From Escherichia phage vB-Eco-KMB40, in sequence record OR539220.1: 64,000 nucleotides of DNA; one strand, given 5' to 3'. Under the pieces are notes generated by a model. It was not told where the DNA came from and made no database searches. It worked only from the letters and a program-made list of their open reading frames with translations. The position numbers and the translations under genes were made by a program. Each line of letters begins with the position of its first letter. Position 1 is the stretch's first letter. This document shows, in pieces, positions 29,933 to 53,748 of the stretch.

Positions 29933-30121
29933 TTAGTCATAATAATCAGTAACAGTCCAAGCTTCATTTCTATTGGACATTATTTTTGTATATTCTGCTT
30001 TAAATGCATTCCTAAGCATAGATTCAGTAACTATATGCTCTTCATTAGAAAAATTATTTCTCAGAATATATCGTTTTATTTCAGGAAAAGTTAATAAATG
30101 CTGTCCAGTTGAATATTCCAT
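29933..30121 (-). CDS. hypothetical small protein (62 aa)
   Basis: ORF between rpbA and 46. Confidence 0.4.
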   Translation of the reverse strand: MEYSTGQHLLTFPEIKRYILRNNFSNEEHIVTESMLRNAFKAEYTKIMSNRNEAWTVTDYYD

Positions 30122-30176: not shown

Positions 30177-31859
30177 TTAAACCATTACAGTAAATCGACC
30201 AACTTTCTTCATTTGAAGATGCTGACCATATTCTTGCGGGTCATGGTCTTTATGCGAAATTATAAAAACATTAGTGTTTTTCATTGAATTTATAATATTA
30301 GCTACACCTTTAATACCTTCGGCGTCAAATGACCCATCAAACACTTCATCGAGTATTAATGTACTAATACTAACACCAGATACAATAGAAGCAATATCAC
30401 GCCAAGTAAATAAAAGAGCAATATCAATTCTTGCCTTTTCACCTTCACTAAATGAAGCATAACTAAAATCTTCACGACCACGGGATTTAATTGTCTCATT
30501 AAATTCTTCATCTAATGTAAACACATAATCCGCTTCCATTATTTTAAGATAATGGTTAATCTGCTTATTAAATAATGGAATGTACTTTTTAATAATAGCA
30601 CCTTTAATACCAGAATCTTTGAGCATATCAGTCAAAATTCCTCGGTGATATTTTTCCATTACTAAATTAGTTTTTGTCTTAACAATTTTATCAAGTTCTT
30701 CTTGAAGCAGTGCTATTTCATCAGCATGGTCAATAAACTCAGAAGATGCTTTTTCTATAGCTGCTTTAACTTTTTTAGCTTTATCTACCGTCGTGATTAG
30801 AGATTGCTTTTTATTGCGAATATCATTTGCCAACGACTGCTGGGTTTTAATATTATCTCGGTATTCATCAACAAGAACTTTTAAATTATCACGATGTGTT
30901 GAAAGCTGTTCAAACGAATGCGTACATTCAGAAACTTTATCTTTAATTTTAGAAACAACTTTATCACCGGAACTTAATTGTGACAAACAGGTTGGACATA
31001 ATCCACCTTCGTGATACATATTAATGACTTTATTATACGAGTCAATTTTTGATTTAATTAAAACTGCTTCTTGACCGATTTTATTAAATGCATCAGTCGG
31101 GTCTTCGTCTAAAACAATATTAACTAATCTTTCATTAGCTTCTTCTATTTCTGATTTTAGCGTTCTAGCTTCTTTTGCCAAATCATCATACATATTTTGA
31201 AGACGAGTAAGGTTGTCACCAGTTAATTTTTTCTGGCGTTCAACGTTATCATTATATATTTTAATTTGTTGGATAATACTATCTTTTTTGACATCAAGCA
31301 CTTGGTTCTGCGAATTTAATTCACGTATTAGTGCTTTATTAAGCTTATCCATTTCAGCTAATGTTCCTACCTCAAGCAAGTCTTCCACAAGCTTTCTTCG
31401 CGCAGGGGTCGACAAACCCATGAAAGGGGTATACCCTGCTGTACCAAGGACAACAATCTGCTTGAAACTGGCATATGACATTCCGATAAGCTGTTCAAAT
31501 TCTGCTTGGAAATCTTTACTGCTGGCAGATTCATTAAGACGTGTACCGTTAACGGTGATTTCGAAAACGTTTGGTTTTTGTCCTCTTTTGATATAGTACT
31601 TTTTCTCATCATATTCCATCCACAGTTCAACTAAAAGTTCTTTCTTATTTGTGCTGTTTATTAATTGGCCTTTCTTTACATCGCGAAATGGCTTGCCAAA
31701 AAGCCCAAATGTGATGGCTTCTAGCATAGTAGACTTACCACCGCCATTTCGTCCAGTAATAAGAGTTTTTTGAACCTTATCTAATTGAATGTCAACTCCA
31801 TTTTGACCAACTGACATTATATTTTTATATTTTACTCTATTAAGTTTAAATGATTTCAT
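30177..31859 (-). CDS. 46: recombination nuclease subunit, Rad50/SbcC-like (560 aa)
   Basis: 560 aa, Walker A GRNGGGKST, coiled coil with CPTC hook; matches T4 gp46. Confidence 0.9.
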   Translation of the reverse strand: MKSFKLNRVKYKNIMSVGQNGVDIQLDKVQKTLITGRNGGGKSTMLEAITFGLFGKPFRDVKKGQLINSTNKKELLVELWMEYDEKKYYIKRGQKPNVFEITVNGTRLNESASSKDFQAEFEQLIGMSYASFKQIVVLGTAGYTPFMGLSTPARRKLVEDLLEVGTLAEMDKLNKALIRELNSQNQVLDVKKDSIIQQIKIYNDNVERQKKLTGDNLTRLQNMYDDLAKEARTLKSEIEEANERLVNIVLDEDPTDAFNKIGQEAVLIKSKIDSYNKVINMYHEGGLCPTCLSQLSSGDKVVSKIKDKVSECTHSFEQLSTHRDNLKVLVDEYRDNIKTQQSLANDIRNKKQSLITTVDKAKKVKAAIEKASSEFIDHADEIALLQEELDKIVKTKTNLVMEKYHRGILTDMLKDSGIKGAIIKKYIPLFNKQINHYLKIMEADYVFTLDEEFNETIKSRGREDFSYASFSEGEKARIDIALLFTWRDIASIVSGVSISTLILDEVFDGSFDAEGIKGVANIINSMKNTNVFIISHKDHDPQEYGQHLQMKKVGRFTVMV

Positions 31860-31874
31860 TTTGTATCCAATTGT

Positions 31875-32729
31875 TCACAATGAAGAAAATTCTTTAACTA
31901 AAGCCTGTAATGAAGCCTCTATTGGATATCCATTCTTAACTAACATTTTCCTAAACATCACATGTTTAGGACGATTATATGATATCCACAATTCATACAA
32001 TTTATCTTTATTATCCCAATGATAGCCTTTTCGTCGAGATGCTATATGAGCTTTTCTAATCTCCGGATTTTTCCAACTAGCAGCTACTGAATTTGATATA
32101 GCTATTTTATATTCAGGTTTTGATAAAGCAGCACGAACAGCCTTTTGGTGTTTAATTTTATTTTCTTCGTTATTAAACCATTCCCTTGAAGCCATTGAAA
32201 TTTTTTGTTTTGTTTTAAAATTATTTAATCTTTCTTTGTTATCTTTCCTATTTTTTGCTACTGAAAAATATTTTAATGCCCTTTCTCTAGCAGCATTTCT
32301 ATTTTGCGGATTTGAATAATACTGTTGAAGTCTTTTTGATATTGTGTCACTTACATCTTGTTTTATAAAACTATACTCAGCAGCTATTAAATCAACTTCG
32401 GCTAAAGATAAATTTTTATATGTTTTTCCTGACATCATTCTATTTAAAGCATTTAGCATTTTTCCATTTTTACCTTTTGCTAATAAGAAATGTGCTTTAA
32501 AATGATTAAAATGACTTAAATTAACTAAATTCCATGTAGATTTTAAATATTCAGGAAATATTGATTTAGGAAGCACGTGGTGTGCTTCCGTTTTACCTGG
32601 AGTTTTAACAGTTGAATTCATAGAAATAAAATTAATGTAAGACTTGGCGTCTTCTTCACTCAACGCTAATTTTTCAACTAATTCCTTTATTAAAAATTCA
32701 TCATTAATGTCAAGTTTAAAATTCTTCAC
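31875..32729 (-). CDS. free-standing HNH homing endonuclease (284 aa)
   Basis: HNH motif EAHHVLP...NLVNLSHFNHFKAH; lies between 46 and 46.1; starts with GTG overlapping 46.1 stop (GTGA). Confidence 0.7.
   Translation of the reverse strand: MKNFKLDINDEFLIKELVEKLALSEEDAKSYINFISMNSTVKTPGKTEAHHVLPKSIFPEYLKSTWNLVNLSHFNHFKAHFLLAKGKNGKMLNALNRMMSGKTYKNLSLAEVDLIAAEYSFIKQDVSDTISKRLQQYYSNPQNRNAARERALKYFSVAKNRKDNKERLNNFKTKQKISMASREWFNNEENKIKHQKAVRAALSKPEYKIAISNSVAASWKNPEIRKAHIASRRKGYHWDNKDKLYELWISYNRPKHVMFRKMLVKNGYPIEASLQALVKEFSSL
32695..32713. repeat. 19-bp direct repeat copy A (aattcatcattaatgtcaa) at 5' end of HNH gene
   Basis: identical to 32898-32916; both encode FDINDEF-type N-terminal codons. 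Confidence 0.8.
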
Positions 32730-32941
32730 AAAAGATTCCTTTTAATGTATCTTTTAGACCATTCTATCATATCATCATAATCTAAAAAGTATTCATCAAA
32801 TTCAGCCATGCAAACAACACCTTGTGCTGCTTTTGATGTGATATAAATTATTCCAACATATCTAGAATCTTCTTCGGTATAATCAATATTTGCTATGAAT
32901 TCATCATTAATGTCAAATGTCGAAAACTTCACAGTATGCAT
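32726..32941 (-). CDS. 46.1-position small protein (71 aa)
   Basis: ATG at 32941; N-terminus MHTVKFSTFDINDEF shares DINDEF with HNH ORF start. Confidence 0.45.
   Translation of the reverse strand: MHTVKFSTFDINDEFIANIDYTEEDSRYVGIIYITSKAAQGVVCMAEFDEYFLDYDDMIEWSKRYIKRNLL
32898..32916. repeat. 19-bp direct repeat copy B at 5' end of 46.1
   Basis: identical to 32695-32713. Confidence 0.8.
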
Positions 32942-33176
32942 CCTTAATACAAGATACAGCCATATCTCGTAATGATTTAGGTGTGTCATTATCTAAAATG
33001 TTGAAGTTAAAAGATACAGCCCAGTCAGTGCAGACTGTAACCTTTTTAATACAATTATCTTCAACCTCTAACGGTTCAAACCAATATTCAATAATTTCTT
33101 TATGCCCAATATCATCTTTTACTTCACATTCAAAATGCTGACTCATCATAACATTTTTAAATTCATCAAAAGTCAT
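32913..33176 (-). CDS. 46.2-position small protein (87 aa)
   Basis: ORF between 47 and 46.1. Confidence 0.45.
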   Translation of the reverse strand: MTFDEFKNVMMSQHFECEVKDDIGHKEIIEYWFEPLEVEDNCIKKVTVCTDWAVSFNFNILDNDTPKSLRDMAVSCIKDAYCEVFDI

Positions 33177-34192
33177 TGTGTTGCCTCTACATATAGCTGA
33201 TTTGCATATTGAATAAGTGCTTCGCGATCAGAATCAGTGATGTCTGGAATTGCATTAATGTATTCTTCCATCAACGTCTGAAGAGATTGAACTTCAACTT
33301 CTTCACTGTCATCTGACTCGACAGAGTTATCAATCTTTGACACAACTCGTAATGAATGCACAACTTTCTCTAGTTCAGATTCGAACTTCGTCAGATTTTT
33401 GTCTACTTCAGTTACTATAACACGTACTGATAGATTTGTAAAATCTTTATAGTCAATTTTTCCTTTAAATGGATAATGAATTCTACGATGCCAGGTAGTG
33501 TTGTTTGGAATAAATTCCATTCGTTCTGTTTCTGTATCAAACATCCAGAACCCACGAGGGTCATTCTCGTCACCGGCAGTTAGTGTCCATGGTGTCCCAA
33601 TATATCTGACGTTAGCAGCCTCAGAGATAGTATGGAAGTGACCAGACCACACCTCTTTATAAGTCTTAAGGAAATCAGGTTCAAGACCGTGAGATTTCAT
33701 TCCTTTATAAAAATAAAATCCATTCAGTTCCCAGTGACCAACACAAAAAGAAGCAGATGAAGTTTTGATGTGCTCAAGAATTTCACCAGTATTTTCTTCA
33801 CACATCCAAGGAATTAAATCAATTAAACATCCGTCAAAATCTACTGTAGTAGGCTTATCATATACTTTAACATTAGGATATTTAGCCAAAAGCTCAGTAG
33901 AGGCATTTGGAGTTAAAGTATTTTTAAAGTGCATATCATGGTTTCCTACAACAGTATGTAGGGTAATACCAGCATCATCAAGCATTTGAACTATTTCACG
34001 AGCGAACTCCATAGTTTTATGCGTGATTGCTTTTCGCACATCAAAAATATCGCCGTATTGAATCCATGTAGTAATTCCATTTTTCTTAGAATATTCTATT
34101 GCTTGTTTAATTCCATCCAACTGAATGGATTGAACCCACTCATCATCGGCTTTAACGCCTAAATGCCAATCACCTAAATTTAAAATTTTCAT
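33173..34192 (-). CDS. 47: recombination nuclease subunit, Mre11/SbcD-like (339 aa)
   Basis: phosphoesterase motifs DWHLG, GNHD; 339 aa as T4 gp47. Confidence 0.9.
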   Translation of the reverse strand: MKILNLGDWHLGVKADDEWVQSIQLDGIKQAIEYSKKNGITTWIQYGDIFDVRKAITHKTMEFAREIVQMLDDAGITLHTVVGNHDMHFKNTLTPNASTELLAKYPNVKVYDKPTTVDFDGCLIDLIPWMCEENTGEILEHIKTSSASFCVGHWELNGFYFYKGMKSHGLEPDFLKTYKEVWSGHFHTISEAANVRYIGTPWTLTAGDENDPRGFWMFDTETERMEFIPNNTTWHRRIHYPFKGKIDYKDFTNLSVRVIVTEVDKNLTKFESELEKVVHSLRVVSKIDNSVESDDSEEVEVQSLQTLMEEYINAIPDITDSDREALIQYANQLYVEATQ

Positions 34193-53138: not shown

Positions 53139-53748
53139 TCACTTTGAAATCATAGTTGGAATGACAGAATCAAGATAATTCTTTAGCGCAATAGCTTCGT
53201 CTTTGGTAAATGTGACAATATGTGCTCGAGAATCATCATTTTGGCGAACAAGTACGACATCGCCATCTTCATAAGAAGTCTTGACATCCAAAGTCGTAGT
53301 ATAGTTTGCAGCTACTGGATTAATAATGCTAGCACCGCGATCTTTAGCCCATTGAAGTTTAACCTTTTCGGGTGTTTCGACTGTTTCAGATTCCAAGAAT
53401 TCTTTCACCTTGGCAACGAATGTTGCCCAATTGTTGATAGAAAGACACATAAATTCAGTTTCAATAGGCAACGAATGTTGCCCAATTGTTGATAGAAAGA
53501 CACATAAATTCAGTTTCAATATTACCGCCGTAAAGGCCACGATAAAAACGAACTTGGAGGTCGCCTGTAATATTAGTTACACCGGTAACTCCTGAGGGAG
53601 CATAAGATAAAATCGCAGCCAGTTCCATAGGAAGAATAGTAATACTATCGTCTTCCTGCGTCAGAACGTATACATTATCACGTTTTTCGATAACCAGGTC
53701 ACCGAACAAATCAGTTGTTTCAATTACAGCTTTCATATTATTTACCAA
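53139..53748 (-). pseudogene. gene split by 55-bp tandem duplication frameshift (tracks 53461..53748 and 53139..53540)
   Basis: both ORFs encode IETEFMCLSINNWATFVA from the two repeat copies; removing one copy gives a single ORF of about 185 aa. Confidence 0.7.
53412..53521. repeat. perfect 55-bp tandem direct duplication (53412-53466 and 53467-53521)
   Basis: ggcaacgaatgttgcccaattgttgatagaaagacacataaattcagtttcaata present twice head to tail with no mismatch. Confidence 0.9.

Follow-up and report, generated by a model that had tools for sequence, protein, structure and literature searches.

A probable homing-endonuclease cassette of the Mob family in the start of gene 46 of Escherichia phage vB-Eco-KMB40

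Background

MobE, a free-standing HNH endonuclease of bacteriophage T4, is encoded between nrdA and nrdB; it nicks the downstream gene, nrdB, at nucleotides (nt) 122-126 in phages without mobE, the site is polymorphic in carriers, and an intragenic terminator restricts MobE expression (PMC2790892). Free-standing Mob genes have also been found inside conserved, functionally important genes, mobA with T4 gene 60/39 and mobE in the nrdA of phage Aeh1, and the T4 endonucleases SegF and SegG are known for "intronless homing" and for T2/T4 marker exclusion (PMC2988022). Here we analyze a gene of this kind in Escherichia phage vB-Eco-KMB40 (sequence record OR539220.1): an open reading frame (ORF) of 284 amino acids between genes 46.1 and 46, in a stretch of 64,000 nt that we refer to, at its full length, as the window. 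The ORF very probably encodes a Mob-family free-standing homing endonuclease, with an N-terminal HNH-type domain and a C-terminal NUMOD3-like region, that travels as an 870-bp cassette in the start of gene 46. It is already labeled "homing endonuclease" in the RefSeq records of T6, T2, PP01, RB68 and others. A literature search found no paper describing this particular endonuclease, which is annotated but apparently uncharacterised.

Results

The ORF (31875-32729, minus strand) opens with GTG, and its translation contains TEAHHVLPKSIFPEYLKSTWNLVNLSHFNHFKAH, as stated in an original prediction made from the letters of the window alone. The prediction had the GTG overlapping the stop codon of 46.1, and this is seen in the sequence (GTG at 32729-32727, TGA at 32728-32726). 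It knew of no homing endonuclease here in T4, and T4 indeed has no gene at this site: the 46.1 stop joins, and overlaps, the start of gene 46. T4 gene 46 begins GTG AAG AAT TTT AAA CTT AAT AGA GTA…. The window has the same AAAAGGAATCTTTTGTGAAGAATTTTAAACTT; after CTT it runs GAC ATT AAT GAT GAA TT… and on through the remainder of the ORF, and gene 46 resumes 870 bp further along with ATG AAA TCA TTT AAA CTT AAT AGA GTA….

The first 18 nt of the ORF are identical to the T4 gene 46 start at 18 of 18 positions, and to 46.1 at 12 of 18. A segment at 32712-32743 (minus strand), comprising the ribosome-binding site (RBS) AAAAGGAA, the GTG and codons 1-6 (GTGAAGAATTTTAAACTT), is identical to the T4 46.1/46 junction, and because of this identity we assign it to the old gene 46 start. 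Judged by this alignment, the endonuclease has captured the former start of gene 46: its AAGGA RBS, its GTG, its coupling to 46.1 and its codons 1-6 (MKNFKL). No alternative in-frame start codon lies ahead of the conserved helix at residue 11, and the N-terminus predicted from the GTG is MKNFKLDINDEF.

The cassette of 870 bp lies within the 5' end of gene 46, with its left junction after codon 6 and ATGAAATCATTTAAACTT at its right end. It includes a replacement start for gene 46 (31842-31874, minus strand), in which the spacer ACAATTGGATACAAA is followed by ATG AAA TCA TTT AAA CTT. This supplies a new RBS, an ATG and recoded codons 1-6, giving gp46 an N-terminus of MKSFKL instead of MKNFKL, so that gp46 is predicted to be made still as one intact protein. 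The old and new starts (32712-32729 and the replacement) form an 18-bp imperfect direct repeat, with 13 of 18 positions matching and the last nine exact. The first 15 nt of the replacement start are identical to the Mosigvirus gene 46 start, and the whole of it is 100% conserved in nearly all endonuclease-carrying records. The context of the endonuclease stop (31869-31880, minus strand) reads TCA TTG TGA AC AATT, compared with CTT TTG TGA AG AATT in T4; this could be a third, vestigial layer of the 46.1-stop/46-start junction, but the match is short and suggestive only.

Pfam models align with gp46 from residue 6 (SMC_N) and residue 8 (AAA_23), which indicates that its first codons are part of a conserved N-terminal strand. 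In the records of GiZh, AV120, fPS-90 and sb2 (loci L023-L026), gene 46 is annotated from locus position 2143, an internal ATG (codon 15), instead of from the GTG that overlaps the 46.1 stop, and this annotation cuts off the conserved strand. The sb2 record also leaves 46.1 unannotated.

A second part of the leader matches 46.1. The exact 19-bp direct repeat TTGACATTAATGATGAATT at 32713-32695 and 32916-32898, which the original prediction had pointed out, is present and forms part of a longer, 45-nt repeat (78% identity). The 64-kb window has only two exact direct repeats of at least 19 bp spaced within 300 bp, this being one of them, and in 200 first-order Markov simulations of 64 kb no repeat was as long as 19 bp (longest 18, mean best 12.6), so the repeat is real and not a product of chance. 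The other is a 55-bp unit (GGCAACGAATGTTGCCCAATTGTTGATAGAAAGACACATAAATTCAGTTTCAATA) in exact tandem at 53412-53521. In the endonuclease the repeated segment is codons 7-12 (DINDEF; 32695-32713, minus strand), an exact copy of codons 7-12 of 46.1 (32898-32916, minus strand), where the codons of 46.1 are numbered from the GTG start annotated in T4. An alignment of 46.1 proteins from five genera has DINDEF, NLDDEF, SIGDGY, HIGDGW or NLGNGW at this position, a conserved family motif of the form [IL]-G/N-[DN]-G/E-[WYF], and because the position is conserved among 46.1 proteins the segment is native to the 46.1 family. The related endonucleases of phages F2 and SEA1 are without DINDEF, and their alignment with the window protein starts only at about residue 13. 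The leader therefore consists of six codons from gene 46 and then six from 46.1, and endonuclease-family sequence takes over at about codon 13. Taken at the level of sequence, the 19 bp common to the two genes are a real capture from 46.1.

The original prediction went further and described the first codons as a near-copy of codons 4-15 of 46.1, left by an insertion that took the translation start of that neighbor. Part of this stands: a start was borrowed, codons 7-12 of 46.1 were captured, and both ORFs begin GTGAAG. Within the described near-copy, similarity is confined to this GTGAAG and the 19 bp. The donor of the start, however, is gene 46 and not 46.1. In favor of the inserted gene having copied the 5' end of 46.1, and so having borrowed its start, are the 19-bp and 45-nt repeats that tie it to that end of 46.1, a BLASTP alignment of the two N-termini (14/39 identities, E = 6e-4), and the origin of the repeated motif in 46.1. 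Nonetheless we consider it very unlikely, since the first 18 nt, the RBS and the overlap with the 46.1 stop are 100% those of the T4 gene 46 start, and only codons 7-12 come from 46.1. The start of 46.1 itself, which overlaps the end of 46.2 200 bp upstream of the endonuclease start, was not duplicated. The alignment with T4 refutes a 46.1 origin of the start codon and codons 1-6, and an appeal to a gene 46 start at the internal ATG (codon 15) in cassette-less phages is countered by the Pfam alignment from gp46 residue 6.

The idea that 46.1 is a decayed endonuclease, prompted by the same BLASTP score and by similar C-terminal ends (…IKRNLL* and …MRKNLSENI*), was rejected. Aligning 46.1 with endonuclease profiles by hhalign gave a probability of 0.09% (E = 0.59), the C-terminal resemblance falls in the conserved gene 46 initiation region, and the similarity of the two genes is limited to the captured 19 bp.

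Several lines of evidence place the protein in the Mob family. PHROG 655 ("homing endonuclease") matches its full length with an E value of 7.8e-45. In tblastn searches of phage genomes it shares 30% identity with T4 MobD over residues 47-281 (83% of its length, E = 2e-11), about 36% with mobC-like genes, and 42-45% with the "MobD-like" genes of F2 and of SEA1/Melville; many further matches are annotated as Mob-like. The putative catalytic HNH motif, E-x-HH…N67…H76-x3-H80, spans residues 48-80 (32490-32588, minus strand). Across 43 homologues there is no variation at H50, H51, P54, H76 or H80, and almost none at E48 and N67. AlphaFold predicts strands at 47-51 and 68-72 and a helix at 73-84 with predicted local distance difference test (pLDDT) scores above 90; the full-length model scores 79.5 and the model of the N-terminal domain 90.3, while residues 1-10 have low predicted confidence. 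In BFVD the domain model matches phage proteins labeled Mob-like, MobD-like, MobE-like and "HNHc domain", as well as T4 MobC (P07074, E = 5e-3). The HH-x15-N-x8-H-x3-H spacing also appears to resemble that of the colicin E9 HNH motif.

The HNH fold that the original prediction anticipated did not appear in profile searches, which is in effect an outcome that the prediction had listed as refuting it. Pfam (including its HNH models) and NCBIfam scans of the window protein returned no significant family, phmmer against PDB sequences gave noise only, and a Foldseek search of the full model, which is dominated by a long helical region, found nothing in the PDB at E ≤ 0.001. What supports the HNH assignment is therefore the motif, together with the predicted strand-strand-helix and the homology to Mob proteins. 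The helical repeat region, residues ~109-233 (32031-32405, minus strand), is likely to be a NUMOD3-type DNA-binding module, judging from its relatives: Pfam NUMOD3 is found in 23 of the 43 homologues, others have NUMOD1, I-HmuI NUMOD-like or I-TevI DNA-binding domains, and the family profile matches the I-TevI DNA-binding domain (1I3J) with an E value of 0.008. The C-terminal region of the window protein itself gave no match reaching any Pfam threshold. By homology and predicted fold, the protein is a member of the T4 Mob family of free-standing homing endonucleases. An Rfam search of 31000-34000 at E up to 1 detected no group I or group II intron; with its own stop codon and a separate gene 46 ATG 15 nt downstream, the gene is free-standing, as the prediction proposed.

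Relatives 42-43% identical to the window protein adjoin gene 46 on its upstream side in the E. coli phage F2 and the Salmonella phages SEA1 and Melville (Gelderlandvirus), and the F2 and SEA1/Melville proteins are colinear with it from about residue 13 to residue 281. A 43%-identical relative occupies the same place in 5 of 16 Gelderlandvirus records. In F2 the endonuclease replaces 46.1, yet its own first seven codons are those that open the Mosigvirus 46.1 (MTKTDYE; 22 nt with one mismatch), and on this sequence match it is a second, independent case of an endonuclease taking the start of the gene it displaced. The SEA1 gene stands in place of the 46.1-like ORF of S16. Both the F2 and SEA1 ORFs run into the start of gene 46. 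STML-198, also of the Gelderlandvirus, has neither 46.1 nor an endonuclease, and there the gene 47 stop overlaps the gene 46 GTG (L017 600-603).

The presence of the gene is polymorphic. Of 522 phage records with the locus, 71 carry it (~14%) and 446 have a contiguous empty site; the insertion polymorphism that the prediction expected is thus confirmed, the gene being absent from ~86% of related phages and not universal among T-even phages. All 71 full-length copies have the same arrangement, downstream of an intact 46.1, and the flanks of carriers and empty sites are 95-99% identical. The ORF is intact and at least 99% identical in more than 50 genomes. Carriers include T2 and T6 and exclude T4; the T6 and window copies are intact, and frameshifted copies occur in T2, RB51 and RB68. 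A variant 71% identical in phage Ac3 was not used, because it probably comes from a low-quality record, with its features entered as misc_feature; tblastn finds 89.9% identity there, in two pieces. Exact-pattern scans for the 5' end of the endonuclease gave no matches in IMG/VR or in a metagenome collection, none of 142 peptide-pattern matches in IMG/VR was confirmed, and the only two IMG/VR contigs with a T4-type junction are both empty sites.

The 47-46 region of phage NRG-P0074 provides the most direct view of transfer. Its backbone is that of a Mosigvirus, ~99% identical to PNJ-6, with one uninterrupted T2/T6-type patch of 1.28 kb (L021 1513-2787) that holds the 3' end of 46.2, a T4-type 46.1, the cassette and the first 117-125 nt of gene 46, that is, flanks of ~290 bp on the left and ~120 bp on the right. 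As a sequence pattern, this is a natural co-conversion tract as left by homing, and together the comparisons are good evidence of mobility.

The same distribution bears on whether the protein is, or still is, a homing endonuclease at all, rather than a domesticated nuclease or DNA-binding protein serving, for example, in interference with competitors or in regulation of the 47-46 operon. The conservation of an intact ORF in more than 50 genomes and its translational coupling within a recombination-nuclease operon would suit such a role; moreover, the authors of the MobE study could not exclude a regulatory role for that protein (PMC2790892), and a phage intron endonuclease is reported to act in interference competition (PMC11620839). 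A selfish element, however, is the better fit to the patchy distribution, to the frameshifts in T2, RB51 and RB68, to the transfer with flanking DNA into a foreign backbone, and to the linked changes in the candidate target described below, and we consider domestication very unlikely.

Carriers differ from most empty sites in the gene 46 sequence just beyond the cassette. This variant tract covers nt 18-66, codons 6-22, of gene 46 (31794-31842, minus strand), and is a candidate target or immunity region. Set against the majority "naive" allele, found in GiZh, RB32 and others, the tract has 15 changes in 51 nt and 5 in 17 amino acids. Two alleles of codons 6-22 are found among empty-site Tequatroviruses: the naive allele, which encodes VRYQNIMSVGGNPI and is the same in Mosigvirus, S16 and fHe-Yen9-01, and a T4-type allele, which encodes VKYKNIMSVGQNGI and occurs in ~70 empty-site records including T4 and PE37. 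All carriers have the T4-type tract with GGAGTT for GGGATT. When 5 carriers were compared with 6 non-carriers over 4 kb, the sole fixed difference fell here, at 31796-31797 (GGAGTT, compared with GGGATT or CCTATT).

The other two endonuclease lineages show similar changes. Relative to Mosigvirus, F2 has 12 substitutions clustered in gene 46 nt 33-69, an isolated island between stretches of nearly identical DNA. SEA1 differs from S16 across nt 9-66, and the tract of the Gelderlandvirus carriers is T4-like. In all three lineages Q12 is changed to K or S and G19 to Q. Because the three share these linked changes, and given the precedent of MobE, we place the target at the 5' end of gene 46: nt ~18-69 are the probable recognition site of this endonuclease family. 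By the same analogy, we infer that the linked variant tract would confer immunity. On its sequence T4 looks like an immune empty site.

The two alleles also bear on the direction of change. The gene could be ancestral at this site, with T4-like phages having lost it by deletion between the flanking repeats of 9-18 bp; deletion between the two copies of TTTAAACTT would produce the T4 junction exactly, the endonuclease-linked tract is found, with 2 nt different, in the ~70 T4-type empty-site genomes, and related endonucleases lie upstream of gene 46 in three phage lineages. We think this unlikely. By an estimate from the census figures, ~350-375 empty-site records have the naive allele with no trace of the cassette, and the naive protein motif matches that of Mosigvirus, S16 and Tegunavirus. 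Furthermore, a chimeric leader of six gene 46 codons and six 46.1 codons could only arise once both genes existed, and NRG-P0074 represents a gain on a foreign backbone. Loss may still account for the T4-type subset, since both gain and loss are expected in the life cycle of a homing endonuclease. T4 itself may be a past carrier, with the cassette deleted between these repeats, or the product of a short conversion tract.

The minus-strand genes of the region follow the order of T4, namely a-gt, 47.1, 47, 46.2, 46.1, the 284-amino-acid ORF, 46, 45.2, rpbA and 45. Gene 47 lies at 33173-34192 and gene 46.2 at 32913-33176, both on the minus strand. Gene 46.1 (32726-32932, minus strand) is intact, matches Pfam DUF5487 with an E value of 1.1e-48, and has coordinates that fit the T4 annotation. 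A mechanical ORF list gives it instead as 87 amino acids from an ATG at 32989, overlapping 46.2 (32726-32989); the 68-amino-acid form from the GTG at 32932 agrees with the T4 annotation and the DUF5487 match. Gene 46, which encodes a Rad50/SbcC-like recombination nuclease subunit, starts at the cassette-borne ATG (30177-31859, minus strand), and gene 45.2 (29933-30121) directly follows it.

RNA folding of the old and new initiation regions gave nothing beyond shuffled controls (z from -0.5 to +0.6), and a promoter scan of the locus did not rise above such controls. On the coding strand, GGAAGCAC-ACCAC-GTGCTTCC forms a near-perfect palindrome at 32569-32589, exactly over the codons of the invariant EAHHVLP motif. 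It was among the terminator-like matches, flagged on the antisense strand only, and the corresponding sequence of F2 is not palindromic.

Other endonuclease genes occur nearby in related phages. RB51 (L001 4726-4900), F2 (L007 4976-5692), AV120 (L024 3782-4200) and NRG-P0074 (L021 4356-4455) have a second homing endonuclease on the opposite strand between gene 46 and 45.2, which the RB51 record labels mobB-like and which the window is without. With this gene downstream and the cassette upstream, gene 46 is flanked by insertion hot spots on both sides. The Yersinia phage fPS-90 has an annotated HNH endonuclease directly upstream of gene 47 and overlapping its start (L025 37-660), where T4 has 47.1 and a-gt. 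In phage Kha5h a 30%-identical relative of the window endonuclease lies in an unannotated gap between gene 56 and soc (L008 2001-2822), beginning inside the end of the dCTPase gene.

Discussion

The arrangement of the locus suggests how the element may work and how it may have arrived. The endonuclease would be translated from the old initiation region of gene 46, while the new start brought by the cassette would serve gene 46 itself. In a mixed infection, by analogy with MobE, SegF and SegG, the enzyme would nick or cut cassette-less genomes, probably within gene 46 nt ~18-69, and recombinational repair would copy the cassette and its flanks into the cut genome. Carrier genomes would be protected by the linked variant tract, by the interruption, or by both.

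The layered leader can be explained by a history of three steps. An ancestor of the endonuclease may have sat in a Tequatrovirus-type 46.1, of which it retained the first 12 codons, as the F2 endonuclease retained seven. It would then have been joined to a genome with an intact 46.1 by an illegitimate event, in register, between the 18-nt leaders GTGAAGAATTTTAAACTT and GTGAAGTTTTCGACATTT, which are identical at 12 of 18 positions (GTGAAG…TT, both ending in TT). The downstream flank, with an ATG-type gene 46 start, would have come along. The 46.1-derived part of the leader is thus probably a relic of an earlier residence inside 46.1.

Some observations weigh against this account. None of the phage records had the postulated intermediate, in which codons 1-12 of 46.1 would be fused to the endonuclease directly after 46.2. 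Most copies are at least 99% identical, which could reflect recent spread and not selection for function. The argument for the target site draws on three lineages and is correspondingly weak, and the ~70 empty-site genomes, T4 among them, that have nearly the same "immune-like" tract without the gene imply that the tract is not strictly tied to the endonuclease. The association could also reflect shared regional ancestry instead of immunity.

A broader possibility, which we offer tentatively and hold to be somewhat short of an even chance, is that this lineage invades by swapping starts: with each move its reading frame would be fused to the start and opening codons of the displaced gene, and it would bring a recoded spare 5' end for the gene downstream. 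Such a fusion would give the endonuclease an established RBS and translational coupling. If this is true, the layers (six codons each from gene 46 and 46.1, and the vestigial junction at the endonuclease stop) are a record of serial hops, and the lineage needs neither an intron nor an intein to enter coding sequence. The target of the lineage would then be the gene for the very nuclease (gp46/47) that is thought to process homing breaks.

The findings leave the understanding of how homing endonucleases work unchanged; the element is of an ordinary kind, and what is unusual is how readable its insertion history is. They correct the annotation logic for the locus: in carriers the GTG of the endonuclease is inherited from gene 46, and gene 46 starts from a cassette-borne ATG. 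In several deposited genomes gene 46 is given the wrong start or the endonuclease has no annotation. The locus offers a clean example from nature in which a free-standing homing endonuclease has entered the first codons of a conserved gene and, by donating a duplicate 5' end, left that gene unharmed, and the NRG-P0074 patch documents recent spread of the cassette across genera. The predicted target, gene 46 codons 12-22, has three natural alleles (naive, T4-type and carrier-type). Since T6 has an intact copy and T4 none, the element could bias inheritance toward T6 markers, opposite in direction to the classical exclusion of T2 markers by T4.

Among described systems, MobE belongs by fold and sequence to the same Mob family as the window endonuclease, although the sequence similarity is distant. 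MobE has an N-terminal HNH-type domain and a C-terminal DNA-binding region, and the window protein a putative domain and region of these kinds. Both lie directly upstream of the target gene (inferred in the window), with a start codon overlapping the upstream stop, and in both cases carriers and non-carriers differ in the 5' region of the downstream gene, and the flanks are co-converted. The locus, however, is 46.1/46 rather than nrdA/nrdB, the window element lies inside the downstream coding sequence after codon 6, where it takes the start of that gene and brings a replacement, and its activity and target are predicted. MobD is the closest T4 paralogue by tblastn. The "MobD-like" endonucleases of F2 and SEA1/Melville share the position directly upstream of gene 46, but there the endonuclease replaces 46.1, whereas in the window 46.1 is intact, the endonuclease uses the old start of gene 46 and gene 46 a new one.

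The spread of the Seg enzymes, by break repair with co-conversion of flanks (PMC2988022), leaves mosaic patches similar to that in NRG-P0074. The Seg enzymes are of the GIY-YIG type and T4-encoded, whereas the window endonuclease is of the putative HNH type and is found in T2 (defective) and T6, not T4. The insertions of mobA with gene 60/39 and of mobE in Aeh1 nrdA, like that in the window, are accompanied by new expression signals (PMC2988022). In those cases the host gene is broken into two pieces that are translated separately, whereas gene 46 in the window loses six codons only, and a recoded duplicate replaces them so that gp46 stays a single chain.

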